Program-made: the position numbers and the translations under genes
From: an uncultured Verrucomicrobiae bacterium
Lineage (GTDB): Bacteria > Verrucomicrobiota > Verrucomicrobiia > Limisphaerales > SIBH01
Assembly (NCBI GenBank): GCA_963760275.1
Contig: CAVXCM010000013.1
Location: forward strand, 910,653 to 974,652
DNA length: 64,000 nt
Reading direction: 5' to 3'
The notes under the pieces: model-generated
What the model was told of the DNA's origin: nothing
The model's database searches: none
The model's input: only the letters and a program-made list of their open reading frames with translations
Shown: positions 14,391-32,152 of the stretch, piece by piece
How positions within the stretch are numbered: the stretch's first letter is position 1
Layout: the number at the start of each line of letters is the position of its first letter

Positions 14391-14403
14391 CGCTCTCCAG
14401 CGA

Positions 14404-14565
14404 TCAAGACTCCGGTCTCAGCACCACGATCGCCAATAATCCGGCCACGACAGCAACAGAGGCCGGTGCGGAAACGCCGGTCATGCGCGCGAATTGCATC
14501 AAAGCGGGAAGCATCGCCAAAAGCAGCAAAACCAGCACGAACGTCATTAGCGGGATTAATCTCAT
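14404..14565 (-). CDS. small hydrophobic protein (two predicted TM segments)
   Basis: ATG-initiated 53 codons MRLIPLMTFVLVLLLLAMLPALMQFARMTGVSAPASVAVVAGLLAIVVL, immediately downstream of the BON gene. Confidence 0.35.
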   Translation of the reverse strand: MRLIPLMTFVLVLLLLAMLPALMQFARMTGVSAPASVAVVAGLLAIVVLRPES

Positions 14566-14572
14566 GGTTCTC

Positions 14573-14893: not shown

Positions 14894-15129
14894 GATGGGC
14901 CAGGGTAGCCAATCGAATGCCAGCCTCACCTCACCGACTGGAAGTCGTCATTATGGGGCGAGCCGGTGACACGCTTCATTTGATTCGCACTCTGCCGCTT
15001 GCAAGGCGCAACTAACAATGTTCCAAAGACTGCACAGTGCGCGAGAGGGCGTGTTTCTATTTCCCAATCATCATTGTTTCCTTAATGTCCGTGACCGAAC
15101 GCCTACAACAGTATGAACCAGCCTCAACC

Positions 15130-16434
15130 ATGAAAGCTGTCCTGCTAATCGAGGATGACGAGGCCTTGCGGCCAATGATCGCTGCGCTTTTGGGTGAAAA
15201 CGGCTGGAAGGTCTTGGAAGCATCGGATGGCGAGGCTGGTATCCATCTTGCCCGCCAGCACAAGCCTGATGTGGTCGTGTGCGATCTGCTGATGCCCCGT
15301 TGTAATGGCTATCAAGTATGCCGGGCCATTCGTGCCACTCCCGACCTGCATGGGACACGGATCGTGATGATTTCCGGTCGCGGTTATTACACAGATCGGC
15401 TCAATGCGTTGGAAGCGGGTGCGGACGAATATCTGATTAAGCCGGTCCAAGCCGAGGAATTGCGTGAAGCACTTACCCGCATGACGGAGGGAAACTCCCC
15501 AACCAAGGCGGCGGGGCGTCCAGCCCCTTCCCAAACTTCGGGGCCGACTCGTGTTAAATTTTGGGGTGTTCGTGGCTCGATCGCTTCACCGGGGCCCGAA
15601 ACAGTTTTTTATGGAGGTAACACCTCCTGCGTTGAAGTGCGTGCTGACGGGGAGATAATCGTGCTCGACGCTGGGACTGGGATTCGGATGCTTGGTTTGA
15701 GCCTCGCCGAAGAATTCGATGGGCAGCCGCTGAACCTGACGCTTCTTCTCACGCACACCCACTGGGATCATATCCAGGGATTCCCATTCTTTGTGCCCGC
15801 TTACGACCCGAAGAATACGGTTCGAATTTTGGGATACGAGGGCGCCCGTCAGGGCTTGGCGGCCACTTTGGGTGCACAGATGGAAAGCCCCTACTTCCCC
15901 GTCGGCATCAAAGAACTTCCCGGCAACATCACGATCGAAGAATTGCGGGACATGGAGTTCATGGTCGGCGCTGTGCGCGTGCGGGCGATGTTTGTGAATC
16001 ATCCCGGCATCTGCGTGGGGTATCGCCTTGAGACCAGCGGCGGCTCCGTGGTGTTCATCCCCGACAACGAGCCGTTCCTCCGGCTGCGCACCCAGCCCAG
16101 AAACATGGACCCACACGCGGCGGAATTTGCGGAGGCGCAGGATGCGAAGCTTGTTGAGTTCATACGGGAAGCCGACTTGCTCATCATCGATGCTCAATAC
16201 GATGCGGCTGAATACGAATCCCATGTCGGTTGGGGGCATTCCTGTGTTGATGACGTCGCGGCCCTCGCCACGCGGGCAAACGTCAAGCAGCTCTTTTTAT
16301 TCCACCATGATCCGACGCACAATGACGAGCGAGTTTCCCGAAGCCTGGCCCACGCGCGTCGCCTTGTGGGTGATGCCACGTTGGTGGAAGCGGCGCGCGA
16401 AGGACTCGAAGTGCTTCTGAAGGCCAAGGGCTGA
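15130..16434 (+). CDS. response-regulator receiver domain fused to MBL-fold metallo-hydrolase
   Basis: REC domain MKAVLLIEDDEALR...PDVVVCDLLMP...EYLIKP. MBL motif LLLTHTHWDHIQGF (HxHxDH). Start could also be 15085 or 15037. Confidence 0.8.
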   Translation: MKAVLLIEDDEALRPMIAALLGENGWKVLEASDGEAGIHLARQHKPDVVVCDLLMPRCNGYQVCRAIRATPDLHGTRIVMISGRGYYTDRLNALEAGADEYLIKPVQAEELREALTRMTEGNSPTKAAGRPAPSQTSGPTRVKFWGVRGSIASPGPETVFYGGNTSCVEVRADGEIIVLDAGTGIRMLGLSLAEEFDGQPLNLTLLLTHTHWDHIQGFPFFVPAYDPKNTVRILGYEGARQGLAATLGAQMESPYFPVGIKELPGNITIEELRDMEFMVGAVRVRAMFVNHPGICVGYRLETSGGSVVFIPDNEPFLRLRTQPRNMDPHAAEFAEAQDAKLVEFIREADLLIIDAQYDAAEYESHVGWGHSCVDDVAALATRANVKQLFLFHHDPTHNDERVSRSLAHARRLVGDATLVEAAREGLEVLLKAKG

Positions 16435-16514
16435 CCTGTCTGCGGCAGCGTGGAAAAAGGCGGCGGTTCATCCCTTCATTTACCCCGCATACCCCGCGTG
16501 GCTTCCCGCGTTCC

Positions 16515-17609
16515 TTACAACCCGTGGTTCGTTCGGCGCAGTAATACGACGCCCAGGGCCTGGAAAACGAAGTTGGGCAGCCAGACGATGAGGTAGGGCG
16601 CGTATTGGGGCTTGGTATCGAGCGACTGCCCGAGAATCAGGAAGCTGTAATAGGCCAGCACCAATACAAGGGAGATTGCAATGCCGACACTGGTCTCCCG
16701 GCGGTGCGCTCGAATTCCCAAAGGGATTCCAACCAATGCAAACCCGATGCAGGCAAACGAGAAGGCGATTTGAGAATGTATTTGCACGTCCACGGGCGTG
16801 GTAGGGATCCCTTTGGCAACAAGTTCGCGTCGTTTTTCCCGCAGCTCCATGAAGCCCAAGTCCGAAAGGCCGGGCTGCTTGGTGGCTCTTTCCTGCAATC
16901 CCAGTTCGATCGCCGCCTGGCCCCAATGCGATGGGCGGTGTTGGCCGTCGCGTCCGTCCACATGGGAGGCGTCAAAAAGTTGCAGCCGAATCACCCGGTT
17001 CGTTCCCGTGGAATCGAGGGCAAAGGTGCCGCGCGGTGCGCGCGTGGTGCTGAGCAGGTTGCTCCCGCTTTTATCCATCTCGTAAAGATAGATGTCTTTG
17101 ACCTCGTTCCCGCGGAGACGTCCGAAGTAGATGGTGTAGGGCTTGAAGTCCCGGATAAAAGTGCGCTCCTGGAGCAGCATGTCGAACCGTTCCATTGCAC
17201 TCTTGAAGAGAAGGCGCTTGTAGGCCACACGGCATTGCGGCGCGAGTTCAAGGTTCACAAACGCACACACCGCACTGAGCAACACGCTTAGGACAAGAAT
17301 CGGGGTGATCAAAGAAAGTAAACTAATGCCGCTCGCCCGCACCGCGGTCAGCTCGTTGTCGGCACTGAATCGTCCAAACGTCAGCAACGTTGCCGTCAGC
17401 ATCGCCATGGGCAATGCAAAGACGAGCACGTAGGGAATCAACAGTCCCACCGCCTGGAGTACGGTGAGCAGCGTCACCTGCCGGTTGACGAGCAGTCCCA
17501 GGATTTCCCGCAGCACGTTGCCGATCAGCAGGACAAAGGTGAAAACGCCCACTGTCAGCACCAGGGATCCAAGCACCTGGCGGGTTAAATACGTGTGAAG
17601 GGTCTTCAC
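16515..17609 (-). CDS. LptF/LptG-family (YjgP/YjgQ) permease
   Basis: [36 protein letters not shown]...[21 protein letters not shown] is typical of LPS export permeases. Six hydrophobic segments with a central periplasmic domain. Confidence 0.8.
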
Positions 17610-17727
17610 GTTCGAATGGACCGGCCTGCGATATGCCGCGTTCTAAAACTAAAATACATCACCACATTATGCAGTTGGCGGTTGGTGCCGGAAACAAAAA
17701 GGCGGCGCAGCCCGGCAAAACAAACCG

Positions 17728-19537
17728 TCATGGCTTTAATTTCGTTCGCACCAGTTCAGGGAGATATTTCACCGGAACCGATCCCTGCGAGAGAACCGCT
17801 TCGTGATACCGGGCGAGGCTGAATTTTTCTCCCAACTCGCGCTGCATTTGTTCCCGCAAGCGGACGTGCGCCATGCGGCCCACGAAGTACGTGCTCAGTT
17901 GCGTCGATGTTTGTTTCGCCCGAACCAGCTTGGCTCTCGCCTCCTCTTCGGATTGGAACGCTCCGTTCGTCATCAGTTCAATGGCTGCTTCGTCGGACAT
18001 TTCCTGCACATGGAGCTTATGATCGAGGATGGCATTGCACACCGCGCGCAAATAGAACTTCAACTGGTTCAGCCGCAACGCCAGTTCGTCCGTGCCCGCC
18101 CCGTAGCCTTGGTCGAGCATCATCTGCTCTGTGTAAACGGCCCATCCTTCAATGGTGACGCCGGATTGCAGAACGCGCCGAAGGAAAGAGGGGGTACGGC
18201 TGGAATATTCGAGCTGCACGTAATGGCCCGGATAGGCTTCGTGGATGGTGAGGATTTGCAGCATGTGCCGGTTGTACTCCTCGAGCAGGCTCCGAGTGCG
18301 CTGCGGAGTCCAATCGCTGGCGGGCGGGCTGATGGCGTAAAAGCTCGGCGCTTCCGGGTCGAGCGGCGGCGCGCCGTTCAAGTAGGCGAGGGAATTGCCT
18401 CGCTGAAACTCCGGCATCTCAATGATCTGGCAACGATCAGGTTCCGGCAGGCGTAAGATGTTTTTCTCGCGGATGAACTTTTTGATTTGATCGACCTGCG
18501 CCCGTGCATCCACCAGCAATTCCTCCGGCTTGCTGTGTTCCTTCGACACTGCCGCAATGACCTTGGCCACCGTTTCGCGCCGACCGGCGACGTCTGTGAC
18601 CGGCAACGGCGTCATGGGGAAATACCGATGCCAAAGCTGGCGTGCTACAACATACATGTCGCTATGCACCCGGGAGAATTCGGTCTCGGCATCCCGCAGA
18701 ACTTCCTCCGCGGTTAAACCGGCGTTCAAGGTGAGCTCCAGTTTCCGCGCGAATTTCCGTTTACCTAACCGCCATTCGCCGGTGGCGGCGCGGCAATAAA
18801 TCCTTCTCCAGAAAATCTTGGTACTCTTTCAGGACGGGCACAATCCGCGCCGCTTCCGCCTTGAGGGTTTCAAGTTGTGATGTTTCACCGACCGCTTCAA
18901 ACAGGTCCTTTTCGTAAAAGCCAATCGAACCTTTATTCTGACGAATGGCCGTCTCCAGGACCACGCGCGGAGGATGTTTCAGGTTCAATTTTGCCGCGGC
19001 AACGACCGCGGGAACGCCTTTCATTCGTTGGATGGCATTGGCCACGTTCGTCTCCTTGGGCAACCGCGATTGGGTGAGAAGTAGGAAGATGCTGTCGCTG
19101 ATGTATTCGTTGTAGATGCGCGGGTTGTTTGCGAAGGGCTGAGTGTTCTCGCGCACCCAGATCGCTGCCTCCAGTTCGTGCGCGAAAATATCGAAGTTGA
19201 TGCGTTCATCGGCTGACAGTTTCGTCCGGTCAATATCCCGTCGGAGCCGCGCGCGGGATTGCTTCAAGTGATCGAGCGAGTTTTCCAGCCCCGCTGGGGA
19301 AAGGTCATCCAACTTGTGATCGAAGCGATGATCGCCCAGTTGTGTCGCCTCCATGGGATGCAGCGCAAAACGCTCGTCGAGGTACCGGCGGAAGAATGTT
19401 TCAAGCTGCGACTCGGCGCCCGAGGCCTGGGACGAGAGGAGGAATACGGTGAGCAGCCCGAAAACAAATTGCCCGTGGGCGTCTCGCTTCAAGCAGAGGC
19501 GGATGAAACTGAACAAGGCTGTTTTGAATTTACGCAT
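17728..19537 (-). CDS. DUF885-family protein (metallopeptidase-like), one +1 frame break at about 18785-18795
   Basis: N-terminal part is ORF 18761..19537 and the C-terminal part is 17728..18729. They join as EKDLLPR/AATGEWRLGKRKFARKLELTLNAG. The HEAYPGHY motif is characteristic of DUF885. Confidence 0.75.
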
Positions 19538-20796
19538 AACGATCTGGATTCAGCAGTGTGATGGGGAGCGACGGCTCTTCGCCACTGAGGATTTCGCTGA
19601 TCAGCCGGCCGGTGATTGGTCCCAAGCTCAAGCCCATCATGGCGTGGCCGGTGGCGATGGTGAGGTTCGAGAACTTCGCCGTGCGGCCGAGATACGGCAG
19701 CCCATCCGGCGAGCACGGACGCAAGCCGCGCCACGGCTGGATGCCCGCGAAATCCTCCGGCGGTGAACTTCGGAAAGTATTTCGGCACCGCCTTGATGAT
19801 GCCGCGCACGCGCACGGGATTGATGTCCTCGTTCAAGCCCGGCGATTTCCATCGTGCCGCCGAAGCGCAGCGTGTCGCCCATCGGCGTCACCGCCACGCG
19901 CGCCTCGGTGAAGATGGAACAAAGCTGCGGCAGTTCGCGCGGCTTGGTGAGCGTGAGGCTGTAGCCTTTGCCGGCTTGCATCGGGAGTTTCAGTCCGAGT
20001 TCGCGCGCCGAGTGACGGGAGACCACGAACCGCCGCAGAGGATGAATTCGTCTGCCGCGAACTCGCCCGACAGCCGTCGCAGACTGCCGGAGACACGACT
20101 GAACCGTTTTGCGCGAACGGCAGTCACCTCGGTGCGCCCAAACAAACTTCACGCCCAGCGCGTCGCACTGCCGCTTCAATCCCCGCCATGAAGCGATTCG
20201 GCGAGAGATGGCAGTCCTTCGGGAAATAAACGCCGCCCACCACGTCCATCGTCACCGTCGGGATCGAGTTTCGCGAGTGCCTTGGCATCGAGCACCTGCG
20301 CCGGCACGCCGAGTTCATTGGCTTGCGCGGCGTACTTCGCCTCGTCATCCAGGCCATGCTGGGTTTTGCAGAGCATCACCAGGCCTTTCTTCACCAGACC
20401 GAAGTCATTGTCTGGCAGCGCCGCCAGTTCCTCGAAGCAATCACGGCTGGCGAAACTCAAATCGCGAATCAACGGTGCGCTGCGTTCAACGTGTGCGCAT
20501 TCGCGGCGCGCATGAACTTCCAGCCCCACGACATCAGCTCCCAGTTCAGGCGCGGCTTGATGTAGAGCGGCGACTCGGGATTCCACATCCACTTGAGCGC
20601 CGTGCTCACCGACGCCCGGCGCCGCCAGCGGCACGAAGTGACTCGGCACCACCATGCCCGCGTTGCCGAACGAGCAGCCATCTCGCTCATCGGCATTCCG
20701 ATCGATGACGGTGACGCGATGGCCGCGGCGTGCGCAGTAATAGGCAGTGGAAAGGCCAATCACACCGGCGCCGATGACGAGAATGCGTTTGCTCAT
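19530..20796 (-). pseudogene. FAD-dependent D-amino-acid dehydrogenase (DadA-like; candidate cis-4-hydroxy-D-proline dehydrogenase), about 8 frame breaks
   Basis: FAD fold MSKRILVIGAGVIGLSTAYYCARRGHRVTVIDR. DadA-like blocks are scattered over three frames: STALKWMWNPESPLYIKPRLNWEL / HVERSAPLIRDLSFASRDCFEEL / TVTMDVVGGVYFPKDCHLSPNRF / LGVKFV / TEVTAVRAKRFSRVSGSLRRLSGEFAADEFILCGGSWSP / ELGLKLPMQAGKGYSLT...TMEIAGL / NEDINPVRVRGIIKAVPKYFP / DFAGIQPWRGLRPCSPDGLPYLGR...TGHAMMGLSLGP. Confidence 0.8.
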
Positions 20797-22301
20797 GGCG
20801 CCGTGACCGCACCATCCAGCGCGCGAATGGGCCAGAGCGGTGACTTCACGTGTTGCTGGTCCAGCAAGGCGGCCAACTTTTTCACGACGACGGGCTCTTG
20901 CGAAGCGACGTCCATCGTCTCGCCCGGATCGTTTGCGAGATTGTACAGTTCAATGCGTCCGGGAGTTTGATCCCTGGCATTGCGTGGCGGATTTAGCCGG
21001 GTGCGAATCGCTTTCCAATCCCCCACCCGCACGCATTGTTGTCCGCCGTAACCTGGAGATTCGCGGTAAAGAAAAGGACGCGGCGGTTGAGCGTGGCCCA
21101 ACAGTGTCGGGGCAAAACTAATTCCGTCTGTTCCTGCCGGCACCGAACTCTTTGCGCCGGTGAGTTCCAACAACGTGGGCAGCCAGTCTTCAAAGCCTGT
21201 CACGCGATCGCTGGAACTGCCGGGCTTGATTTGGCCGGGCCAGCGAACCAGGCATGGGATGCGAAAACCGCCTTCGTAATACGAGCCCTTGCGCCCGCGC
21301 CAGCCTGCGGCGCTGCGGAAGAAATCCGTGTCCGTTCCTCCGAGTTGATCGTACAGCGGTCCATTGTCGCTGGTAAAAATGACCAGCGTCCGTTCGTCCA
21401 ATCCAAGTTCCTTCAGCAACGCCAGCACCCGGCCCACATCCCGATCCATTCGCGTGATCATTGCGGCGTAAGCTGCCCGTGGCGTGCGGTGGGGCAGGTA
21501 GCCGCGGCCGCCGGGATAGGGCGTCTCAGGAAATCGTCCTTCGAATTCCCGCAGGGAATCCTCCGGCACTTGCAACGCGAGATGCGGCACCGTCGTCGGG
21601 TAGTAGAGGAAGAAAGGGCGATCCTTATTCTCGCGCAGGAAACGCAGCGCTTCGCGCCCAATGAGGTCGGGCGCGTAATCTGTGCCGGTGAACTTTACAT
21701 AGCTGGCGGGCGCATTCGGATCGGCACCAGCCGGGAGTTTTTGGTGGGCGGAGAATTTCTCGTTCCTCAGCACCGTGCGAGTGGCGTTGGACCAGAGATG
21801 AGTAGGATAAGAATTGTGCGCCACGGCCTGGCAGTTGAAGCCAAAGAAGCGATCGAACCCCTGCCGCAGCGGATCACCCGAACTGCCGACCGGACCGAGG
21901 CCCCATTTTCCGAAGGCACCCAGTCGATACCCTTCAGCCTTCAACAAAAGGGGGAGTTTCAACTCGCCCGGCGGCACCGGTTGCTGGCCTTCGCCGTTTT
22001 CGCCAAGGCCGCCGCGATTCTCCCGGATGTACCCATGTCCGGGATGTTTCCCGGAGAGCAATGCGCAGCGGGACGGGGCACAAACGTTATGCCCGGAATA
22101 GTGTGCCGTGAACTTCATTCCTTCCGCGGCCAAACGATCAATGTTCGGCGTCTTGAACTTCTCCTGCCCGTAACAACTCAGGTCTCCATATCCCAAATCG
22201 TCCGCCAGGATGAACACGACGTTCGGGCGATCCGCCGCCACGACTGTCAGGGCAACGGCGAGCCAGCTCGCGCTAATAATCCACTTCCGGCACCAGTTCA
22301 T
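20793..22301 (-). CDS. arylsulfatase-family sulfatase (formylglycine-dependent)
   Basis: RPNVVFILADDLGYGDLSCYG and the CxPxR motif in NVCAPSRCALLSGKHPGH. N-terminal signal peptide. The start overlaps the upstream stop by ATGA. Confidence 0.9.
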   Translation of the reverse strand: MNWCRKWIISASWLAVALTVVAADRPNVVFILADDLGYGDLSCYGQEKFKTPNIDRLAAEGMKFTAHYSGHNVCAPSRCALLSGKHPGHGYIRENRGGLGENGEGQQPVPPGELKLPLLLKAEGYRLGAFGKWGLGPVGSSGDPLRQGFDRFFGFNCQAVAHNSYPTHLWSNATRTVLRNEKFSAHQKLPAGADPNAPASYVKFTGTDYAPDLIGREALRFLRENKDRPFFLYYPTTVPHLALQVPEDSLREFEGRFPETPYPGGRGYLPHRTPRAAYAAMITRMDRDVGRVLALLKELGLDERTLVIFTSDNGPLYDQLGGTDTDFFRSAAGWRGRKGSYYEGGFRIPCLVRWPGQIKPGSSSDRVTGFEDWLPTLLELTGAKSSVPAGTDGISFAPTLLGHAQPPRPFLYRESPGYGGQQCVRVGDWKAIRTRLNPPRNARDQTPGRIELYNLANDPGETMDVASQEPVVVKKLAALLDQQHVKSPLWPIRALDGAVTAP

Positions 22302-23182
22302 TGTGAGAGTTTCTCCGCGATTTTATGGAACCGTTTTCTTATCTCTGCCGACGTTCCAATCGTCAACCACGCGTCATACTCGAACTTCATTCCGGGCGTG
22401 ATGGCGAAATCCTTGATGGGCGCAAAGTAAGAGCACGAGCCGTGATCCCGCTTCCCATCTCCGAAGCGATAGCACGTCAGCGACGTTGCCACGGGCACAA
22501 ACACGCCCACTCCCACGTCGCTGGCATTGACATATGCCGCCCATCGCTCGGTGAATCGCCGGTACTCGTTCGGCCAACCCGGCTTAAAGCCGACGATCGG
22601 CTCACCTGCCCAGGCGTTCGTGCCTTCGTAAACCAGCAGCGTGCTGTACTGCGGCTCGACGAACACGGCAGGAAGTTCCTGGCTTCGATTGGGATGTGTG
22701 TTTGTCCCGGTATAAGTCATCCGAAACTTTACGTGCGCCAACAAACCGGTGAGCGAAATCCATTCCTCGAAGATCACCTCTGGCAAATCTGCGCCGGTGG
22801 CCCAATGCTTCGCCATCGTTTTGGCGTAGAGCGACGATCCTTCTAATTTTAACTCCAGGACGGTTGCCGGTTCGTGATTCCAGCCGCCGCCTTGCACTGG
22901 GTTCCAGTGCCACGGCTGGTTGTTCCACATCGATCCATCCTTGGCGCCGTAGAACGATTGCTGTACCAGCCTCCCGCGGTCCCAGTGATTGATCACGTTC
23001 TCGCCGGTGGCATTGAGCGCAAGATATGCGATGCCGGCGCCGGAGGATTTCTTTACACCCAGGCGCAAGGCACCGTTTTCGATGTATACGAAGTCGTTGG
23101 TCGCGCGCTCGGCGGGCGCGGCGGAGAGGAACCACGGAAGACACAGCAGACACAGAATCAGGAGGCGAAGGACATTCGTCAT
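22298..23182 (-). CDS. secreted hypothetical protein
   Basis: Signal peptide MTNVLRLLILCLLCLPWFLSAAPA. 294-aa Trp-rich ORF translationally coupled (ATGA) to the sulfatase. I recognise no family. Confidence 0.55.
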   Translation of the reverse strand: MTNVLRLLILCLLCLPWFLSAAPAERATNDFVYIENGALRLGVKKSSGAGIAYLALNATGENVINHWDRGRLVQQSFYGAKDGSMWNNQPWHWNPVQGGGWNHEPATVLELKLEGSSLYAKTMAKHWATGADLPEVIFEEWISLTGLLAHVKFRMTYTGTNTHPNRSQELPAVFVEPQYSTLLVYEGTNAWAGEPIVGFKPGWPNEYRRFTERWAAYVNASDVGVGVFVPVATSLTCYRFGDGKRDHGSCSYFAPIKDFAITPGMKFEYDAWLTIGTSAEIRKRFHKIAEKLSQ

Positions 23183-23210: not shown

Positions 23211-24134
23211 TCAACGTATCCCCCAACAGAACGGATCTCGTTCATCGAGCAGGAGCGTAGCCTCTGAATTGACGAATGCGGTACCCGTGATAATGGGAAT
23301 GATTTTGTCGCCATCGCGTCGATAACGGCCGGTGAAGGAACTGCCAATCAAGCTTTCCTGCACCCACGAGTCACCTTCCTTGAGCTTTCCGTCGGCAGCG
23401 AGACAAGCGAGCTTTGCACTGGTGCCAGTGCCGCAGGGCGAACGGTCGTAGGCTTTGCCGGGACAGAGGACGAAGTTGCGCGAATGGCCGCCAGGCAATT
23501 GCGGCGGGCCAAACAGTTCAACGTGATCCACTTCGGGATAACCCTGCGCGTTCAGCGCCTGTCGAATCGCCCATGAAAGTTCCGTGAGCTTCTCGACGTT
23601 GCTCAAGGCCAGCGACTGGCCGTGTTGCTCCACGAGAAAGAACCAGTTGCCGCCCCACGCCAAGTCGCCGGTTATTTTGCCCACGCCCGGCACGTCCACC
23701 GTCACGCCCTTGGCCTTGCGATAGCTCGGCACGTTCTCGACGGACACCGAGCCATCCTCGTGCAACGTGGCCGTGACCACGCCCACGCACGTTTCGATGC
23801 GATGCGCGCCCGGCTGGATGCGCCCCAGATGCGCGAGCGTGACGATCAGGCCGATGGTCCCATGCCCGCACATTTGCAAAGGCCCGACGTTGTTGAAGAA
23901 GATGACTCCGGTGACGCATGTCGTATCCGTCGGCGCCACGAGCAGCGCGCCGACAATCACATCCGAACCGCGCGGTTCGTTGACGACGGCAGAGCGGAAG
24001 TGGTCATGCTTTTCGCGGAACAACTTCACACGCTCCGCGATGGGGGCGTTCCCAAGATCCGGCCCGCCGCTGATGACGATGCGTGTTGGTTCACCGCCAG
24101 TGTGGGAGTCAATGATTTGGATGCGTTTCAACAT
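23211..24134 (-). CDS. proline racemase-family enzyme, most likely 4-hydroxyproline 2-epimerase
   Basis: [14 protein letters not shown]-terminus. Both catalytic Cys contexts are present ([10 protein letters not shown] and [11 protein letters not shown]). Confidence 0.88.
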
Positions 24135-24168: not shown

Positions 24169-25548
24169 TCAGTTCACCCTCAGTGCCCGCTGAATCCTTA
24201 TCGCCGGCTTGAGCGATTGGCCGTCAGCCGGGGCGGCGTGAATCTTCCGCACCACGTCCATGCCCTTCACCACTTTGCCAAAGGCGGCGAAGCCCTGGCC
24301 GTCGGGATTCCGTTTGCCGCCAAAGTCCAGTTCAGGCTGGTCGCCGACGCAGATGAAGAAGTGGTCCTGCGCGCTGTCCGGCTCCGCGCGCGCCATCGAG
24401 ATGGTGCCGTCGAGATGCTTCAGCCCGGTGTCGCGCGTGCGCTCGATTTGGATGGGCGGGAAGAACTCGTTGGTCTTCGCCGGATTGGCCGAGGCTTGAA
24501 TCACGGCAATCTTCACCGCGTTCGTCGGCTGGTTTGCGGACGTGACGGTGCGGTGGAACTCGCCGTCGTTGTAGAGACCGGCCTGCACGTAGCGCAGGAA
24601 ATTCGTCACGGTCTGCGGCGCGGCTTTCGCATCCAGTTCCACTTCAATCACGCCGAGCGCGGTCTCGATGGAGACGCGCGGCTTCTCCGGCACGTCCGGT
24701 TTGCGCCATTGGAAGCGCGGGGCCTTGCTGGCGTCGTAGCCGGCGAGATGCGCGCGGTCGGCGGCGGCGCGGAGGGCAGGTTTCTTGTAGCGCCACGGGC
24801 CATCCCCGAAAACCTCGGCGCACAGCGCGGCGACCTTCGGATCGTATTCCTTCAACTGCGCGCGAGTGTGGACGTGGTTGTGCAGCGCGTCGTTGCGGCG
24901 GTTGTCGTCGAACCAGTTCTGCGCGGCCTCGGCCCAATACTCGCCGGGATTGCTCGCGGCGTAGGTGCCTTTCCACAGGCCGGCAGTTGGTCGCGCTTTG
25001 ATACGCCTCACGCAGGCGGCGATCGAACGTCGGGTCAATCGCCCGCAACGCCACGCCGTGAATGACGTGCGAGAACTCATGCACCAGAATGTTCTCGGTC
25101 GAATACGGATCGCCCGGGAAGCTCAGCATGTTTTCCTCCGCACAACTGGCGATGCGCCCGCCCAATCCACGCGCGCGGCGATCCCAATACACCTTCGGGG
25201 TCATGTTCGCCTGCTCGGGGATGTCGGTCGTGTATTCGTTGTGCGCCATCACGACGAGCCGCGCGCCATTCGTGGCGAGCGCATGGAGGATGTCCGCGCG
25301 GTTCGTGAGCATCTGCCGAATCACCCAGGCCGACTCCAACATCGCGAAGTCCGAGACGTTCGAAGAGCCGAGGATGGGAAAGCCGTCGAGGTCGATGTGC
25401 TTCTGGTAGAACGGGGCGAGTTTGGCGCTGCGCCGCAACTCATCGGAAACCGGGCGAACAACGTCGGCAGCGGACGCGGCGAAGCCACAAAGAATTATTA
25501 CCGCAGAGGCGCAGAGGCGCAGAAATGGGGGGACAGAAGTGGGAACAA
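24169..25548 (-). CDS. HExxH zinc-metallopeptidase-like domain fused to cyclophilin-type peptidyl-prolyl isomerase; one frame break at about 24985; start unresolved
   Basis: N-terminal domain carries [14 protein letters not shown] and, after the frame switch, [14 protein letters not shown]. The C-terminal ~165 aa is cyclophilin-like ([36 protein letters not shown]...GTISMARA...[12 protein letters not shown]...[14 protein letters not shown]). A signal-like [19 protein letters not shown] has no in-frame canonical start before it. The only upstream Met codons lie inside the REP element. Confidence 0.7.
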
Positions 25549-25583
25549 AGGCCGTGCTCGATCGTCGCGATGCGCTTCCGCGC

Positions 25584-25675
25584 GAAGCCCGGAGGGCTTC
25601 AACACGAATAGCCCCCGGTGCAACCGGGGGTAACGGCGTGAAGGAAGAAACCAACCCCGGAGGGGTTGAACCCAA
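25584..25675. repeat. REP-like cluster of three GC-rich hairpins (left flank of RAYT)
   Basis: Three 7-bp-stem hairpins: GAAGCCCggaGGGCTTC (25584-25600), CCCCCGGtgcaaCCGGGGG (25611-25629), CAACCCCggaGGGGTTG (25652-25668). It is the near-perfect reverse complement of 26188..26276. Confidence 0.85.
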
Positions 25676-25719
25676 TCGCGCCGTCTGTCCAAACACCGCC
25701 TGAACCATGGCACACGTCT

Positions 25720-26166
25720 TCATGGCAAAAACCTTTCATCCAGTTCCATCCCCGCCCTCTGCAACATATCCCGATATTCTTCCAGAAACGGCACGGCGCG
25801 ATGATGTTCCTCCTGTCCCTTGATGTATTCGATCAATCCATCCCGTTCCGCCCACGAACAGGTCAGCGCGGCATAACCCTCCTGCCACCCCTCAAACTCC
25901 GGGAACACACGCTCATCTTTGATCCATTTCGACGAAGCGACCTTGAGGTCTTTGATGAAATCCGCGAGCGCCACCGTTGGATGCAGTGAGGAGAGGATGT
26001 GAACGTGATCTTCCACACCACCAATGCGGTAGAGATGACAGTCGTGGTTTTTGATGACGCCCCAGAGGTAGCGGAACAGATCGTCACGCCTGGCTTTGTT
26101 CAGAACACGCCGCCGCCCCTTCGTCGCGAAGACGATGTGATAGACGATTTGCGTGTAGTTGGACAT
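25720..26166 (-). CDS. REP-associated tyrosine transposase (RAYT; IS200/IS605 TnpA-like HUH Y1 enzyme)
   Basis: MSNYTQIVYHIVFATKGRRRVL..., HUH motif DHVHIL, C-terminal LIEYIKGQEEHH (Tyr helix). 148 aa, the typical size. Confidence 0.85.
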   Translation of the reverse strand: MSNYTQIVYHIVFATKGRRRVLNKARRDDLFRYLWGVIKNHDCHLYRIGGVEDHVHILSSLHPTVALADFIKDLKVASSKWIKDERVFPEFEGWQEGYAALTCSWAERDGLIEYIKGQEEHHRAVPFLEEYRDMLQRAGMELDERFLP

Positions 26167-26187
26167 GGCTGGGAATGGTTCGTCGTT

Positions 26188-26276
26188 GGATTCAACCCCT
26201 TCGGGGTTGCGTCGTAATTCGGTTCGTTACCCCCGGTTGCACCGGGGGCTATTCACGTTGAAGCCCTCCGGGCTTC
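26188..26276. repeat. REP-like cluster of three GC-rich hairpins (right flank of RAYT, inverted)
   Basis: CAACCCCttcGGGGTTG (26193-26209), CCCCCGGttgcaCCGGGGG (26230-26248), GAAGCCCtccGGGCTTC (26260-26276). The order is mirrored relative to the left flank. Confidence 0.85.
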
Positions 26277-26314: not shown

Positions 26315-27225
26315 TTACTTCCGCTTCGGAATCTTCGGCCGGCTGGCGATGCCGTCGTGGATGATCTTCAGCACGCGTTTGCGTTCCTCGCCTTTCAACA
26401 CGAGGCGCGGCGCGCGAACCCATTCCTTGCCAAGACCGGCTTCCTGCACGGCCAGCTTGATGTATTGCACAAACTTCGTGCTGACATCGAGGTGCAGCAG
26501 CGGCGTGAACCAGCGGTAAATGTCGCGGGCCTCGTCCCATTCGCCGCGCCGGGTCAGTTCCCAGAAATATTGGTTCTCCGCCGGGAAGGCGATGCCGCTG
26601 CCGGCCACCCAGCCGTCGATGCCGAGGATGCTCGCCTCCAGCGCGAGGTTGTCCACGCCGGTGAAAATGGCGTAGCGGCCACCGACCGTATTGTGCAGGT
26701 CGGTGATGCGGCGCACGTCGCCGGAACTTTCCTTGAGCGCGACGAAGTTCTTCTGATCGGCCAGCTTGCGCGAACAGCTCGGGCGTGATGTCGTTCGCGT
26801 AGCTGATCGGGTTGTTGTAAATCATGATCGGCAACCCGGTGCACTTCGCCACGGTGCGGAAGTGCGTCAGCGTTTCGTCCGGGTCGCCTTTGTAGAGCAT
26901 GGCGGGCATGAGCATTACGCCGTCGGCGCCGAGCTTCTCCACGTCGCGCACGTAACGCACCGCTTCCGCCGTGCTGGTTTCGGCGACGCCGCTCAGGACC
27001 GGGATGCGGCCGTTCACCGCCTCGATCATCGCGGTCATCACGCGGCGCTTTTCCTCGCCGGTCATGGGCTGGTTCTCGCCGAGCGAGCCGAGGAAGATCA
27101 TGCCGCTCGACGCCGGACTTGATGAGCGCTTCGACGTGACGCGCGGTCGCGTCAAGGTCGAGCGAGCCGTCCTTGTGCATTTGGGTGGTGATGGCGGGAA
27201 AGACGCCTTGCCAGATGTGTTTCAT
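26315..27225 (-). CDS. DapA/DHDPS-family lyase (candidate pyrroline-4-hydroxy-2-carboxylate deaminase), two +1 frame breaks at about 27105 and 26766
   Basis: MKHIWQGVFPAITTQMHKDGSLDLDATARHVEALIKSGVE / GMIFLGSLGENQPMTGEEKRRVM...GADGVMLMPAMLYK...IMIYNNP / LADQKNFVALKESSGDVRRITDL...LGIDGWVAGSG lie in three successive frames. Confidence 0.8.
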
Positions 27226-27258: not shown

Positions 27259-29460
27259 TCAAAATGCTACGTCCAGTTTGTTCAATGTGAGGTAAAGCGG
27301 CCCGGCCGCCGATGGCCCGGTTGTGAAGGGCAGATTGTACCGCACTTCCATCTGCATCACGGGTCGCAACTCAGCCGTCTCAATGAAAACAGATTTACCG
27401 TCGGGCAACACTTTCGCAGAGCGCACGGCGACTTCATCGCGGCCTTCCTTGCCCGGATCGGCGGAGGAGTAATCCTTTGAACCGTAGTCGGCGGCGTAGC
27501 GGTAGTTCCATTGCTTCAACGCATAGCTTCCTGGATCTTCGGCGGCGGCTCTGTCGAGAGGCTCGGCGAATGTGAGTTTCAATCCGTTCCGATGCGCGTG
27601 CCAGGCGATGGGAGTGCGCGTGACGGTGCCGGTGCGGCGGACTCGTTGCAGTGAACCGTCTTTCGCGGCGCTGGTCTGCCAACCGGTGCTGCCGGCGATG
27701 TAGAGATGACCATCCTTCGGCGAGAACGTTCCGCGCATCGGTCCGGACAAAAATCTCCCGGGCAACGCGACGGCAGCGCCTTGTGGCTGGCCATCAACTA
27801 CATCACGTAAGATCAACGCCATGGCACAACGGCCCCAGAGCAGGTGCAACATTTTGCCACCGAGCGCGCCCCAGGCGCCTTCAGGCACCCAGACCTGGCT
27901 GGAGCTGGAATTATCAAACGCGTGGGGCAGCCAGCAGAGCGGCGCGTCGTATCCCAGCGGTCGCTCCGAATTTGCTCTCGGTCCACCATAGCCATAATGC
28001 GCGCCAGGCCTTACCTCGAAGATTGCCGAGGAGGGCGTCCACTCGCCCTGCTGCGGCGCGGTCGTGATGGTGGGCCCGGGCCCTACGCCGAGCCCGTTAG
28101 GATTTCGAAGGCCGGCGGCTAATGTCTCTTTTATCTCTCCATCCGCAGAAATGCGCTGCACGCCTTTGGGATCGACGTAGTAAAAATTGCCAGCCGCATC
28201 CTGTTCAAGGCAGGTCACGTAATCATGCCCGCCCGTCGACGTGGAAATGTTGTTGAAGAAGTTTTCATAGAAGTCTGCCTCACCGTCTCCATTCTCGTCG
28301 TGCAACACGGTGATTTGGTCTCGACCGAGAACATAAATCTTTCCGTCGCGCACCCGCAGGCCCAACGGCTGAAACAAACCCGTCGCGAACCTGCGCCACG
28401 TGAGTTTTTGGAGACTTTCATCAACCCCACTGACAAGCCAGACGTCGCCATGAATGGTGCAAATCGCTGCGTCGCCATCCGGCAGAAAATCCACGCCGGA
28501 GACAAACATGAGCGCCTTCCAGGGGTTGTCGTACGGTAGCGTCAATGTGTCGATGGCGAATCCATCAGTGGCGAAGCCGCGCTGTCCCTTGGTGGTCAGC
28601 GGCTTCCAGCGGGGCGCAGAGGCCTTCGCAAGTTTCGTTAAATCTTCTGCGGGGGCGGATTGTTTCACCACCGACGCCAGGGCGCTGGCGCTGTCCGTTG
28701 TGTAGAATAGTTTCGCGCGCAGGATTTCGTTGGTGGCAAGAAGGCGGAGCTTGAGCAGGCCGTTCTCCTCAAAAAGCTCGGCGGCATTCCCGAGCACGGC
28801 GAATCTTAAACGCTCGTCGCGTAACGCGACCGTGGCGACTTTCACTCCATCAACATTTGTGATTTCAACCGCCCTCGCTTGCGACAGTGTCAGCAAATTC
28901 TCGCTGTCTCGCGAGATTTCATAAGTGCGCGTCACGGCCGTGATCCCCGCTGCGCGTTCGACCCAGGGAGATTCGAGGACGCGAGTTTTACCCACGATGT
29001 ATTCGAGAACGACGCGAGCGTCACTCACGTGCAAACCGCGCCAGCGGACGGTTCCCCTCCACGCCGGAGATCCTGCGGCGAGGAAGCGTACTTCACCGTC
29101 CGGCTTAGGCGCGCGCACCAGACCGTATCGAGCGGAGTCAAACTTCAAAAATCCGTCCGTCCAAATTCCGCACAGCGTCGCGGTGGCGGTGTCGTACACA
29201 GCGGATACGATGCGCTCATTGCCCATGCGTATTGAAAGCCCCTTGGCCACCGAACCGCCTGGCAGCGCCACCACGGAGGAATGAAAGTTCCCAAGAACCG
29301 TTTTATTCCAGCGCGCATCCACCCAGTCTCCCTCGTCCTGCCGCTCGACGGACTTCCCTGCGGACGCAGTCTCGCCGGCACGCGGCGCCTCCGCCGACCA
29401 GGAAGTGAAACTCAACGCCAATGCGGCGGCACTGGTCACAAGGAATGCTTCAATCTTCAT
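27259..29460 (-). CDS. secreted beta-propeller protein, PVC-type putative membrane-bound dehydrogenase-like domain
   Basis: Signal peptide MKIEAFLVTSAAALALSFTSWSAEA. Core PLGLRVRDGKIYVLGRDQITVLHDENGDGEADFYENFF...GGHDYVTCLEQDAAGNFYYVD...GLRNPNGLGVGP resembles the soluble sugar-dehydrogenase-like propeller of Planctomycete/Verrucomicrobial proteins. I saw no CxxCH haem motif. Confidence 0.55.
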   Translation of the reverse strand: MKIEAFLVTSAAALALSFTSWSAEAPRAGETASAGKSVERQDEGDWVDARWNKTVLGNFHSSVVALPGGSVAKGLSIRMGNERIVSAVYDTATATLCGIWTDGFLKFDSARYGLVRAPKPDGEVRFLAAGSPAWRGTVRWRGLHVSDARVVLEYIVGKTRVLESPWVERAAGITAVTRTYEISRDSENLLTLSQARAVEITNVDGVKVATVALRDERLRFAVLGNAAELFEENGLLKLRLLATNEILRAKLFYTTDSASALASVVKQSAPAEDLTKLAKASAPRWKPLTTKGQRGFATDGFAIDTLTLPYDNPWKALMFVSGVDFLPDGDAAICTIHGDVWLVSGVDESLQKLTWRRFATGLFQPLGLRVRDGKIYVLGRDQITVLHDENGDGEADFYENFFNNISTSTGGHDYVTCLEQDAAGNFYYVDPKGVQRISADGEIKETLAAGLRNPNGLGVGPGPTITTAPQQGEWTPSSAIFEVRPGAHYGYGGPRANSERPLGYDAPLCWLPHAFDNSSSSQVWVPEGAWGALGGKMLHLLWGRCAMALILRDVVDGQPQGAAVALPGRFLSGPMRGTFSPKDGHLYIAGSTGWQTSAAKDGSLQRVRRTGTVTRTPIAWHAHRNGLKLTFAEPLDRAAAEDPGSYALKQWNYRYAADYGSKDYSSADPGKEGRDEVAVRSAKVLPDGKSVFIETAELRPVMQMEVRYNLPFTTGPSAAGPLYLTLNKLDVAF

Positions 29461-29671: not shown

Positions 29672-32152
29672 TCAGTTCCACCTTGGTTCCCTCCGGTGCA
29701 GGGCGCGCACGAAGAAATCCTGCAGTCGGCGTTTTCCATAGGCGCTGCCCGCCACGCCGTGGCCCGCCCCGGGCACGACGAGATACTCAAAGTCCTTGTT
29801 CGCTTTGATCAGTGCATTGGCGACCTGTGCGGTGCTGGCCGGGTCCACATTGCGATCCATTTCACCCACCATCAAAAGCAGCTTGCCCTTGAGGTTCTTC
29901 GCGAGCGTGACGTTGCTTTGCTCATCGTAATGCTTCTCCACGGGCCAGCCCATCCACTGTTCATTCCACCAGATTTTATCCATGCGATTATCGTGACAGC
30001 CGCAGTCCGAGACCCCGGCCGTGTAGAAGTCGCCGTGGGTGAGCAGGCCGCCCAGGGCATTCTGGCCGCCCGCACTTGTGCCGTAGATTCCGACGCGCGT
30101 GAGGTCGATCTCGGGGTGTTGCGCGGCGGCGGCTTTAATCCAAAGAATGCGATCCGGGAAACCCGCGTCGCCAATGTTCTTCCAACACACGTCGTGGAAC
30201 TTTTTGGAACGCTGGCTCGTTCCCATCCCATCCATCTGCACGACGATGAAGCCGAGTTCCGCCAGTTCCTGCATTCGCGGGACGGCACTAAAGGACTTCG
30301 GTGCAAAGGCGCTGTGAGGGCCGGCGTAAATGTTTTCAATGATGGGATATTTCCTCGCTGGATCGAAATGGGTCGGCCGCACAATCACGCCGTGGATATC
30401 CGTGGTCCCGTCGCGGCCTTTGGCAACGAATCGTTCCGGCGCGCGCCAGCCTTCTTTCACCAAGGCGCTCGCGTCAGCGGCTTCCAAGCGACACACCATC
30501 CTGCCATCGTCGGCTCGCCTCAGCTCCGTTACTGCCGGCATGTCCACGCGGGTGTAAGTGTCGATAAGAAACCTGCGGTCCGGCGAGAACTCGACTGTGT
30601 GTGTGCCATCTCCTTCGGTGAGTTTCACCAGAGAACTGCCGTCGAAATTCACACGGCAGTAATGGATGAAGTAAGGGTCTTGTTCCGGAAAGATGCCGCC
30701 AGCTCGAAACCAGATTTGCCGCTTCTCCCGGTCCACCCGTTCAACCCCGCGCACGACCCATTCGCCTTTCGTGATTTGGTTTTTCACCCGGCCCGTCCTG
30801 GCGTCGTAGAGATACAAGTGGTTCCACCCATCCCGCTCCGACATCCAAATGAGCTCCTCGGTTTCATTGAGCCATTCGAGAAAGCTCTTGCCGCTGTAGT
30901 CGATGAAGGTCTTGCTCTGCTCATCGACGATGGCGCTGACGTGAGCCTGGTTTGCGCTTCGTGGCTCCTGGTTGGTGGGTACTTCGACGGCAATGAGCCG
31001 CAGCACTTGATGCCCTCGCTGGTTGTAGCGGAAGGTAAAGCGGCTCGAGTCTTTCTCCCAACGAATGTCCATGTTGCCAGTCTCGGTGAATGGATTCGGG
31101 AACAACTCGTCACTCACCGAAATCTGCGACTTCGCGTTTACATCGAATAGCGCTGGCCGCGGATGCGGCAGCTGGTCTCCAGGTTTGTAGTAATCGAACG
31201 TGACGAGCTTGGGCTGCACCTGATCCTTTGGCGACGACTCCACGAGACTGACCTTGCGTTCCTGTCCCGGCTTCACGCGCACCGCCACGAAATGTTTCGA
31301 GTTGGTCGACCAGTAAATACGGTCTCGATACGCATCCGTCTGGCTGCCGTCCGTCGTCAGCACGGTTACTTCACCGGTGGTGATCTCTTTGAGCACCACG
31401 TTGTAGTCCTTGATGACAGTCCGCCATTTACCATCGGGCGAGGTATCGCGCGGTTGAACACCATTCGCGCCGCCGTTGCGATTGCTGCGTGGGGGGATTG
31501 CACTCACCGGCGCACCGTTGGTGGTGATAACGGCGTCACTTGCTCGCTCAACGGCTTCGAAGCTTGCCAGCGTTTTGCCCGCGGCATCCGCTGCCACCCA
31601 GGCATGACCGGCAAACGTATGCTGATCGCGCTGGGCGCCTGAGGCGAGCTTGCCATAGCTCTGCCGGGTGCCATCAGTCGCAAGCCAGAACAACTCCACT
31701 TCGTCGCTGGTTCGGTTGATGAAAGTAAGCGAAGTCTCGAGCCCGGTGCGTGGACTGGAGCGGCGTTCACCCAGGTTTGGAGCGGTTGGTTTCAAGGGAT
31801 CCACGGGCCTTCGGTCCAATTTTTGGCGCTCCCCGGTTTCCGCGTTAATCAAAAAAATCTCGCTCGTGTTGGTCCCCGTCTTCACCTCGTACCAGAAGTT
31901 GGTATTGCCGGGCATCCAATGGGCCTGCACCCGGTCGCGAAAAACTTTTCCTGAGAAGCGCTGCGAGAGATTCGCGGCCCGCTCGTAATCGGCTTTGGAC
32001 CCTTGGGCTTGCGCGGGCGATGTCGTGAGGAGCACGAGCCCGACCGCCAGCGAGGATAGAAACTTATATGCGGATTGGCCGGGGCGCTTCCAGGAAAGCG
32101 CCCGCTCGTTCGCATCCTTCGAAACGCGAGGCCAGTATTTTGCGCGTGTCAT
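29672..32152 (-). CDS. S9-family serine peptidase, dipeptidyl-peptidase IV-like (N-terminal propeller plus alpha/beta hydrolase)
   Basis: Nucleophile elbow IYGTSAGGQNALG, acid region MVGEMDRNVDP, His region VVPGAGHGV. Long N-terminal DPP-IV-type propeller region and a signal/anchor LSSLAVGLVLLTTSPAQAQG. Confidence 0.85.
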   Translation of the reverse strand: MTRAKYWPRVSKDANERALSWKRPGQSAYKFLSSLAVGLVLLTTSPAQAQGSKADYERAANLSQRFSGKVFRDRVQAHWMPGNTNFWYEVKTGTNTSEIFLINAETGERQKLDRRPVDPLKPTAPNLGERRSSPRTGLETSLTFINRTSDEVELFWLATDGTRQSYGKLASGAQRDQHTFAGHAWVAADAAGKTLASFEAVERASDAVITTNGAPVSAIPPRSNRNGGANGVQPRDTSPDGKWRTVIKDYNVVLKEITTGEVTVLTTDGSQTDAYRDRIYWSTNSKHFVAVRVKPGQERKVSLVESSPKDQVQPKLVTFDYYKPGDQLPHPRPALFDVNAKSQISVSDELFPNPFTETGNMDIRWEKDSSRFTFRYNQRGHQVLRLIAVEVPTNQEPRSANQAHVSAIVDEQSKTFIDYSGKSFLEWLNETEELIWMSERDGWNHLYLYDARTGRVKNQITKGEWVVRGVERVDREKRQIWFRAGGIFPEQDPYFIHYCRVNFDGSSLVKLTEGDGTHTVEFSPDRRFLIDTYTRVDMPAVTELRRADDGRMVCRLEAADASALVKEGWRAPERFVAKGRDGTTDIHGVIVRPTHFDPARKYPIIENIYAGPHSAFAPKSFSAVPRMQELAELGFIVVQMDGMGTSQRSKKFHDVCWKNIGDAGFPDRILWIKAAAAQHPEIDLTRVGIYGTSAGGQNALGGLLTHGDFYTAGVSDCGCHDNRMDKIWWNEQWMGWPVEKHYDEQSNVTLAKNLKGKLLLMVGEMDRNVDPASTAQVANALIKANKDFEYLVVPGAGHGVAGSAYGKRRLQDFFVRALHRREPRWN

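Follow-up and report, generated by a model that had tools for sequence, protein, structure and literature searches.

Few peptide bonds are as difficult for peptidases as those beside proline or hydroxyproline (Hyp), and for many proline-directed peptidases only the trans isomer is a substrate; this isomer specificity of proline-directed proteolysis is also the basis of the standard peptidylprolyl isomerase (PPIase) assay. PPIase domains tethered to a module that engages the client are present in trigger factor, SurA and the eukaryotic cyclophilins with TPR, RRM, U-box or WD40 domains, and we know of no case among these multidomain proteins in which the partner is a peptidase. On the peptidase side, the closest described systems are PPEP-1 (C. 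difficile Zmp1/CD2830), PPEP-2 and PPEP-3 of family M34 (EC 3.4.24.89), which have been reported from Firmicutes only (PMC8610288). The present analysis concerns a gene on the minus strand of a 64,000-nucleotide stretch of DNA from an uncultured Verrucomicrobiae bacterium (assembly GCA_963760275.1, contig CAVXCM010000013.1), referred to below as the window, in which a predicted M34-like metallopeptidase domain and a cyclophilin-type PPIase domain are joined in one polypeptide (Table 1). An earlier reading based on the letters of the window (the sequence-only reading) had described the same fusion, spread over two reading frames, and knew of no characterised example of it. Both domains belong to known superfamilies, and neither for the cyclophilin-peptidase combination nor for the M34-like clade as a whole was a matching paper found in the literature searched.

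In the sequence as given, the gene is divided between two overlapping minus-strand open reading frames (ORFs) in different frames, one of 359 amino acids (24644-25723), which holds a hydrophobic signal-like segment and the beginning of the peptidase domain with its HEFSH motif, and one of 303 amino acids (24169-25080), which holds the remainder of that domain and the complete cyclophilin domain. The frame break, previously placed at about 24985, was located at 24984/24985 by DNA alignments to two syntenic relatives, the JGI metagenome locus L001 and the locus L087 of GCA_031411375.1, against each of which the window carries one surplus base at this site. Removal of one base here yields a single protein with the frames joined between YQSATN and AGLWKG, and the junction is gapless in every homologue of a 19-sequence alignment (SATN-[A/S/G/T]-GLWKG). 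When the joined sequence was compared with 5.8 billion proteins, 1885 relatives with identities of up to 91% were obtained, the best 120 of which are all single ORFs of 426-553 amino acids that cover both halves (93-100% of the query) with E<=2.7e-200 throughout (3.6e-279 for the top match). A second search returned 6112 relatives, and across the best 120 of each search single ORFs of 426-557 amino acids span both halves. The gene is also uninterrupted in L001 (486 amino acids) and L087 (510 amino acids); the single polypeptide proposed for the window is thus the normal state in its closest relatives.

Breaks of the same kind recur in other genes of the window. The essential gene dnaE (DNA polymerase III alpha; 6294-9979, plus strand), 15 kb from the fusion gene, is split into the ORFs 6294-7001, 6928-7854 and 7703-9979, which encode, in this order, PHP, DNA_pol3_alpha 20-150, and DNA_pol3_alpha 147-260 together with the finger, HHH and OB domains. 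Insertions of one base are also carried by the DHDPS-like gene (at about 27109 and 26768), which is intact in L001 and L087, and by the DAO-like gene (several, e.g. at about 20257, 20184, 19836 and 19760) and the DUF885 gene (17731-19402, minus strand; at about 18788), which are intact in relatives. In the pieces compared, the unambiguous frameshifting differences, those with conserved flanks, were always a single surplus base in the window, with no clear deletion, and no in-frame stop substitution was seen in the pieces aligned to relatives. In view of the similar insertions in dnaE and in three neighbouring genes, the break is read as a sequence error, and it is nearly certain that the locus holds one gene with two domains, interrupted by a one-base error. 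Such errors are scattered across the window, and therefore any pseudogene call within it is suspect. Programmed frameshifting was rejected as an explanation, since no homologue has the break and similar breaks occur in unrelated genes of the window.

The first 260 residues of the joined protein gave no significant family match in Pfam or NCBIfam. A Peptidase_M90 match lies below its cut-off (E=0.28), as does a match to the NCBIfam aKG-HExxH peptide beta-hydroxylase domain, with 17.8 of the required 40 bits (E=0.0026); a hydroxylase identity was rejected after the fold search had pointed to M34 peptidases. In a profile search of PDB sequences the full-length alignment retrieved cyclophilins only, and an alignment of the N-terminal domain alone was used for the peptidase half. 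Its top match was PPEP-1/Zmp1 of C. difficile (E=0.013-0.05, over nearly the whole length), followed by a PPEP-3 chain named "ATLF-like". A comparison with PPEP-1 in hhalign gave a probability of 83.8% (E=7.9e-6), with a PPEP-1 sequence that is consistent with the PDB profile search. Structure comparison led to the same group. A first AlphaFold2 (AF2) model, from 19 sequences, reached a predicted local distance difference test (pLDDT) of 87-95 in the peptidase domain and 30-40 in the cyclophilin half, and a second, from 147 sequences, was confident for both domains (pLDDT 95.1 overall; predicted template modelling (TM) score, pTM, 0.90); the Foldseek list of the second model was filled by cyclophilins, and the fold matches of the N-terminal domain come from the first. 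The best of these are the PPEP-3 structures 9g5j, 9g0j and 9g3t (E=1.8e-5 to 5e-5, probability 1.0), with a TM(target) of 0.57-0.61, which corresponds to moderate fold similarity. Anthrax lethal factor is the next match (E=8e-3), and no MtfA structure is among the top 50 fold or PDB-profile matches. The fold and profile searches therefore agree with the zincin-like domain that the sequence-only reading had proposed.

The domain shares with the PPEPs a two-lobed zincin layout around the HExxH helix, the two His residues and the Glu base, a Tyr 7 residues ahead of the third-ligand Glu, an E-[FY]-[FW]-A-E helix, a W-D...G-L-G-G segment beside the edge strand and, putatively for the fusion protein, export. 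It differs from them in its occurrence in Verrucomicrobiota and Planctomycetota instead of Firmicutes, in its fusion to a cyclophilin and in its place in a catabolic operon rather than beside adhesin substrates. Anthrax lethal factor (M34) and MtfA (M90), of the same clan, share the HExxH motif and the downstream Glu and Tyr; unlike them, the window protein falls below both Pfam cut-offs and has no toxin-type accessory domains. A functional analogy, with no sequence relationship to the fusion, is offered by Svx of Pectobacterium, a secreted zinc peptidase. Svx is an M60-like gluzincin with the motif HExxH-x22-E (PMC9266454), and its second domain confers recognition of hydroxyproline-rich glycoprotein through extensin arabinosides (PMC13164431). 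This extensin peptidase was rejected as a relative, as its family, M60-like, is a different one; its accessory domain differs too.

The alignments allow a catalytic centre to be proposed. In the numbering of the joined protein (518 amino acids), His215, Glu216 and His219 align with His142, Glu143 and His146 of PPEP-1, and in both the HMMER and hhalign alignments Tyr255 falls on Tyr178 and Glu262 on Glu185, with the same spacing of 7 residues between them (YAASNPGE in the window); the PPEP-1 residue numbers were checked against an offset in the sequence used. Glu262 is the first Glu of the EYWAE segment in which the sequence-only reading had suspected a third ligand, and it corresponds to the third zinc ligand of PPEP-1. 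None of these five residues varies among 147 homologues. The roles of the Tyr and of the third-ligand Glu are described for Tyr190 and Glu197 of PPEP-3, and for PPEP-1 only Tyr178 is named, as the oxyanion Tyr (PMC12828418). With regard to the substrate pocket, Trp180-Asp181...Gly-Leu-Gly-Gly aligns in sequence with Trp110-Asp111...GLGG of PPEP-1. We take this Trp110 to be the counterpart of Trp120 of PPEP-3. In the PPEP-3 structure, Trp120 helps to form the S1 pocket around the P1 proline, and the S1/S1' proline-pocket residues are Pro110, Tyr113, Trp120, Val123, His145 and Leu150 (PMC12828418). The equivalent Trp180 is invariant in the 19 sequences and at least 90% conserved in the 147; in sequence alignments, the His145 position is occupied by Tyr207 and the Leu150 position by Ile212. 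The domain is also about 60-70 residues longer than the PPEPs, with a shorter S-loop, and contains the conserved motif WFDxNRxxDxLHNHVxTR (24865-24918, minus strand; residues 271-288). This motif directly follows the zinc-ligand helix and has no PPEP counterpart; most of its named residues are invariant in the 19 close homologues and several, including His282, in all 147. The motif may represent a further site for a metal or a substrate.

The last 165 residues match the Pfam family PF00160 (Pro_isomerase; E=2.6e-30, 106.2 bits against a cut-off of 21.7). The C-terminal domain is 36% identical to the periplasmic PpiA of E. coli (phmmer against PDB sequences, E=3.7e-23), and in the AF2 model it superposes on PpiA (1j2a) with a TM of 0.85 and a root-mean-square deviation of 2.4 Å (Foldseek), so that the family match, the sequence match and the superposition all bear out the complete cyclophilin domain that had been claimed. 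For the residue comparison, the domain was aligned with human cyclophilin A (CypA), PpiA and PpiB, and for PpiA the result agrees with the PDB sequence match. The equivalents of CypA Arg55 and Gln63 are invariant in the 147 homologues, those of Ala101 and Leu122 are kept in 19 of 19 sequences and that of Phe113 in 18 of 19. The Asn102 position is Arg, as in E. coli PpiA and PpiB, with which the domain thus has the Arg, Gln, Ala, Arg(102), Phe113 and Leu122 equivalents in common; the Met61 position is Val. Unlike PpiA and PpiB, the domain is part of a peptidase protein, carries a 10-residue insertion after the FHR motif and a longer loop, and has Phe at the Tyr/His126 position (His126 in CypA). 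Judged by these residues, PPIase activity is likely, though possibly modified or lowered. In peptidase and isomerase alike, the catalytic residues are under strong purifying selection.

The genomic context connects the fusion gene with hydroxyproline. The first three enzymes of the bacterial trans-4-hydroxyproline pathway are an epimerase, a D-Hyp dehydrogenase and a pyrroline-4-hydroxy-2-carboxylate deaminase, and the epimerase-like, DAO-like and DHDPS-family genes of the window are candidates for these, to judge from their family matches. The downstream neighbour scores 426 bits on the NCBIfam equivalog for 4-hydroxyproline epimerase (cut-off 450) and far lower on those for proline racemase (219 bits) and 3-Hyp dehydratase (182 bits). 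Farther upstream, a DPP-IV peptidase carries an N-terminal VHL-beta-like domain. In human pVHL the hydroxyproline pocket is made up of W88, Y98, S111, H115 and W117, and bacterial VHL-like domains, including this one, keep all five (S111 as S/T). The VHL-like domain of the window DPP-IV is, on this residue pattern, a candidate bacterial hydroxyproline-reader module, and nothing relevant on bacterial VHL/DPP-IV proteins was found in the literature searched.

The order of genes in L001 is AraC/PAS regulator, DPP-IV (VHL), GH39, DHDPS-like, fusion, proline-racemase family, OsmC, GNAT, a gene of unknown type, sulfatase, DAO and DUF885, with gaps of 13 bp on the DHDPS-like side and 6 bp on the epimerase side of the fusion gene. 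The window keeps this order with two differences, a Y1 transposase upstream of the fusion gene and a DUF6797-containing protein (733 amino acids; 27259-29460, minus strand) where both L001 and L087 have the GH39 glycoside hydrolase. A 294-amino-acid ORF with a signal-like N-terminus (22298-23182, minus strand) has no Pfam or NCBIfam match and is conserved at the corresponding place of the operon in L001 (298 amino acids) and L087 (294 amino acids), as an uncharacterised member of the hydroxyproline/sulfatase cluster.

Related arrangements occur at other loci of the family. Among more distant homologues of the fusion, L004 and L005 have epimerase and DAO genes within 10 kb, and L003 has a PTR2 peptide transporter immediately upstream. 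A peptidase of this family without cyclophilin stands directly upstream of the epimerase gene in L022, L028, L038, L048 and L053, and a DHDPS-like gene lies upstream of that peptidase, adjoining it in L038, L048 and L053 and 1.4-4 kb off in L022 and L028. PTR2 was found in 7 of 80 species loci (8 with L003), within about 2.5 kb and in most directly adjacent; all context counts of this species scan are lower bounds, many contigs being short. A clustering of neighbouring ORFs was made noisy by the long spurious ORFs of high-GC DNA; its three largest clusters (7, 7 and 6 loci) match DHDPS-like, epimerase and PTR2 by length alone. At L005, large GH43 and GH106 enzymes (11542-18827) were seen beside the AraC/PAS regulator, epimerase and DAO genes; these neighbours would fit glycosylated plant or algal Hyp-rich substrates.

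The peptidase family is large. An exhaustive HMM search gave 4040 clusters at 50% identity with E<=1e-3, 2509 of them with E<=1e-10, and with one genome counted per species at least 589 genomes carry the family, almost all of them Verrucomicrobiota or Planctomycetota. A cyclophilin follows directly in frame in about half of the best 80 species loci, the other peptidases being stand-alone or differently extended. Of the named isolates, Limisphaera sp. 4302-co has a cyclophilin-like extension at the C-terminus, whereas the forms of Haloferula sp. BvORR071 and Singulisphaera sp. PoT are stand-alone. The sequence-only reading had called the fusion unusual, which is true of the literature searched, where no study of it was found, and not of databases, where thousands of such proteins exist; the source names of the fusion proteins mention "peptidylprolyl isomerase" only. 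Fusion partners were counted in a Pfam scan of 79 diverse representatives. The two most frequent matches, Peptidase_M90 (14 of 79, best E 4.7e-10) and ATLF (13 of 79, best E 7e-14), are weak matches to the peptidase domain itself. Of individual relatives, P0121 reaches 41.1 bits on the ATLF model, and a few carry precomputed ATLF or M90 matches, PF07737 being recorded on P0283, P0296 and P0332, so that databases show a faint trace of the architecture. True partners are the VHL beta domain (12 representatives, best E 1.6e-27), cyclophilin (6), sulfatase (4), Peptidase_S9 (4) and DPPIV_N (3, all of which also match S9). P0147, for example, combines DPP-IV with the peptidase domain, P0164 and P0144 combine the latter with VHL and P0130 with cyclophilin. 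One member of the family, P0174, has a metazoan-type architecture, in which an N-terminal M34-like domain is followed by Ig, ShK, thrombospondin type 1, fibronectin type III and zona pellucida domains; therefore the family occurs in eukaryote-like proteins too.

The beginning of the gene is less clear than its end. The upper coordinate given previously, 25548, has no start codon, and no in-frame ATG, GTG or TTG is present between the signal-like segment and an inverted repeat upstream of it. Candidate starts are found only farther upstream, at ATG 25723, to which the open frame of the gene extends, or ATG 25708, both within a repeat associated with the transposase. Because there is no canonical start between the repeat and the signal-like segment, the true start in this lineage is uncertain on the sequence at hand. 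The transposase was inserted into the gap between the DHDPS-like and fusion genes, which is 13 bp wide in L001; it is flanked by 52-nucleotide inverted repeats with 96% complementarity (25584-25635 and 26225-26276) and by a second pair, a layout that resembles that of a REP-associated tyrosine transposase. Its stop codon overlaps the upstream ATG of the fusion gene (ATGA). The same insertion and the same ATGA overlap, there with the annotated ATG of the fusion gene, are present in L087, and yet both its fusion and DHDPS genes are intact.

Table 1. Coordinates of the peptidase-cyclophilin gene, its domains and motifs, and neighbouring features within the window
Feature	Position	Strand	Basis or remark
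Peptidase-cyclophilin fusion coding sequence	24169-25525	-	stretch homologous to intact relatives; stop codon 24169-24171
+1 insertion splitting the fusion gene	24984/24985	-	DNA alignments to L001 and L087; gapless protein alignment
Signal-peptide-like hydrophobic segment, 19 amino acids, then ADVV	25469-25525	-	comparable N-terminal segments in homologues
M34-like (PPEP / lethal-factor-like) zinc metallopeptidase domain (predicted), about 260 amino acids, frameshifted	24676-25462	-	profile, fold, model
HEFSH zinc-binding/catalytic motif, His215-Glu216-His219	25067-25081	-	invariant in 147 homologues
Tyr-to-Glu stretch, 12 amino acids, including Tyr255 and Glu262 (first Glu of EYWAE)	24928-24963	-	HMMER and hhalign alignments
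PpiA-like cyclophilin-type PPIase domain	24172-24675	-	Pfam PF00160, PDB sequence match, Foldseek
4-Hydroxyproline epimerase-like gene, proline racemase family, downstream neighbour	23211-24134	-	Pfam E=6.8e-101
DHDPS-family gene, candidate pyrroline-4-hydroxy-2-carboxylate deaminase, upstream neighbour	26317-27225	-	two +1 insertions
FAD-dependent D-amino-acid dehydrogenase-like gene (DAO), candidate D-hydroxyproline dehydrogenase	19533-20796	-	frameshifted
DPP-IV (S9B) peptidase with N-terminal VHL-beta-like domain	29672-32152	-	VHL Pfam E=1.3e-7
IS200-like Y1 transposase element	25584-26276 (transposase 25720-26166)	-	between DHDPS-like and fusion genes

Taken as a whole, the evidence makes it reasonably probable that the gene encodes an exported two-domain enzyme for Pro/Hyp-rich peptides within hydroxyproline utilisation, and this explanation fits more of the evidence than any of the alternatives. 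The N-terminal domain would be an M34-like zinc metallopeptidase with the active site His215-Glu216-x-x-His219, Tyr255 and Glu262, and the enzyme would act in the periplasm or outside the cell; the secretion assumed by the sequence-only reading is in this sense putative export, suggested by the hydrophobic N-terminal segment and by comparable segments in homologues. The peptidase may act on bonds that are hard for ordinary peptidases, in Pro/Hyp-rich peptides that stem from collagen-like proteins or from the hydroxyproline-rich glycoproteins of plants or algae. The tethered cyclophilin could bind the same X-Pro segments and turn cis bonds into trans ones, so that isomerisation would not be limiting; the products may then be handled by DPP-IV and peptide transporters (PTR2), and the hydroxyproline set free would be broken down in the cytoplasm by the epimerase, dehydrogenase and deaminase. 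Pro/Hyp-containing peptides are rather more probable than not as the substrate class. The role on Pro-rich substrates that had been suggested earlier gains support from the structural relationship to the PPEPs, from the hydroxyproline operon and from the VHL-beta and DPP-IV fusions; isomerisation ahead of cleavage, the other part of that suggestion, can only be inferred, and a true kinetic coupling of peptidase and isomerase is put forward tentatively, with somewhat less than even chances.

Several observations weigh against this explanation. The Pfam ATLF model (PF07737; cut-off 27.4 bits) gives the window protein 13.7 bits (E=0.051); because it remains below this threshold, though some relatives reach the model, the domain is best placed as an outlying sister group of M34/ATLF rather than as a clear member. 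At about 16% identity and a TM of about 0.6, the domain resembles the PPEPs only distantly, and therefore their Pro-Pro specificity cannot be transferred to it. The best profile E value to PPEP-1 is 0.013, compared with the BLAST threshold of 1e-25 that defines PPEP homologues (van Leeuwen et al., 2021; PMC8610288). Relative to PPEP-1, the S-loop is shorter by about 6 residues, which makes the counterpart of Trp103/Tyr113 ambiguous; P-K-V-Y179 may match P-x-x-Tyr113 in the sequence alignment, assuming a 6-residue deletion. In the cyclophilin half, the insertion after the FHR motif is family-specific and disrupts the CypA Phe60 position; Gln111 has no constant counterpart, and Trp121 is replaced by Glu or Ala. 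An epimerase gene was found within 10 kb in only 9 of 80 species loci, all of Verrucomicrobiota type, and the link with a hydroxyproline operon is absent from the Planctomycetota loci examined; the link is therefore lineage-specific.

In one alternative, the cyclophilin would be a module for binding or targeting proline peptides, like VHL-beta in sister proteins, or an intramolecular folding helper, with cleavage independent of isomerisation. The commonest partner in the family, VHL-beta, is a binding module and not an enzyme, which suggests that the partners mainly supply Pro/Hyp recognition; the altered pocket positions (insertion at Phe60, variable Gln111, Glu/Ala for Trp121) point the same way, as do the peptidases that adjoin the same operon genes with no cyclophilin attached. 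However, the equivalents of Arg55, Gln63, Ala101, Phe113 and Leu122 are conserved or invariant, across up to 147 sequences, and the domain resembles the active PpiA of E. coli in both sequence (36% identity) and fold (TM 0.85); a role without catalysis appears fairly unlikely. It is less probable still that the job of the enzyme is regulatory and not nutritional, the clipping of Pro-rich linkers in the surface or adhesion proteins of the cell itself. This is exactly what the nearest structural relatives PPEP-1 and PPEP-2 do (PMC8610288), and the Planctomycetota loci examined, one of them near a giant cadherin-repeat surface protein, show no hydroxyproline genes. The gene has, in contrast, a fixed place in the Verrucomicrobiota catabolic operon, among genes for AraC-type regulators, peptidases, glycosidases and sulfatases, and members of its family are fused to DPP-IV and to sulfatases.

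Two further alternatives question the enzyme itself. A genuine frameshift, leaving a pseudogene or two products in an operon that decays after the transposase insertion, would agree with the break being present in the given sequence, with the damage to several genes of the same operon and with the position of the Y1 transposase immediately upstream. It is nevertheless very improbable, since dnaE, an essential gene, shows splits of the same kind, all unambiguous frameshifting differences are single surplus bases with neither clear deletions nor in-frame stops in the pieces compared, and L087 retains its intact fusion and DHDPS genes behind the same insertion. The least probable possibility, to which we give hardly any weight, is that the N-terminal domain is no peptidase but another HExxH metalloenzyme, such as an aKG/HExxH peptide hydroxylase, or a dead scaffold. 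The weak NCBIfam aKG-HExxH match (E=0.0026) and the lack of a significant Pfam peptidase match for the window protein would be in its favour, but fold and profile searches converge on M34 peptidases, the full catalytic set is invariant, including the oxyanion Tyr at the spacing of the PPEPs and lethal factor, and relatives reach E=7e-14 on the ATLF model. The preferred explanation, an exported peptidase-isomerase for Pro/Hyp-rich peptides, can be extended to the whole family, which would then comprise dedicated peptidases for the Pro/Hyp-Pro/Hyp bonds of collagen-like proteins and Hyp-rich glycoproteins, be the first natural wiring of an isomerase to a protease that removes the cis/trans bottleneck, and mark an unrecognised pathway of Hyp-rich breakdown in Verrucomicrobiota and Planctomycetota that uses VHL-like readers. 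This wider proposal is speculative and, in our estimate, rather unlikely to hold in full.

No long-standing question hinges on the fusion architecture. Nevertheless, an unannotated peptidase domain is concealed in thousands of entries called "peptidylprolyl isomerase", and enzymes that cut Pro/Hyp-rich chains would be of interest for collagen, gelatin and gluten processing. To our knowledge, isomerase-assisted proteolysis has so far been known mainly from the in-vitro PPIase assay; if the proposed function is true, a PPEP-like peptidase naturally fused to a cyclophilin would provide a direct case of it in biology. The enzyme would also supply the missing extracellular or periplasmic peptidase step of bacterial hydroxyproline catabolism, and would thereby hint at a route by which Verrucomicrobiota and Planctomycetota, abundant in soil and freshwater, may recycle collagen, extensins, arabinogalactan proteins or algal cell-wall glycoproteins.

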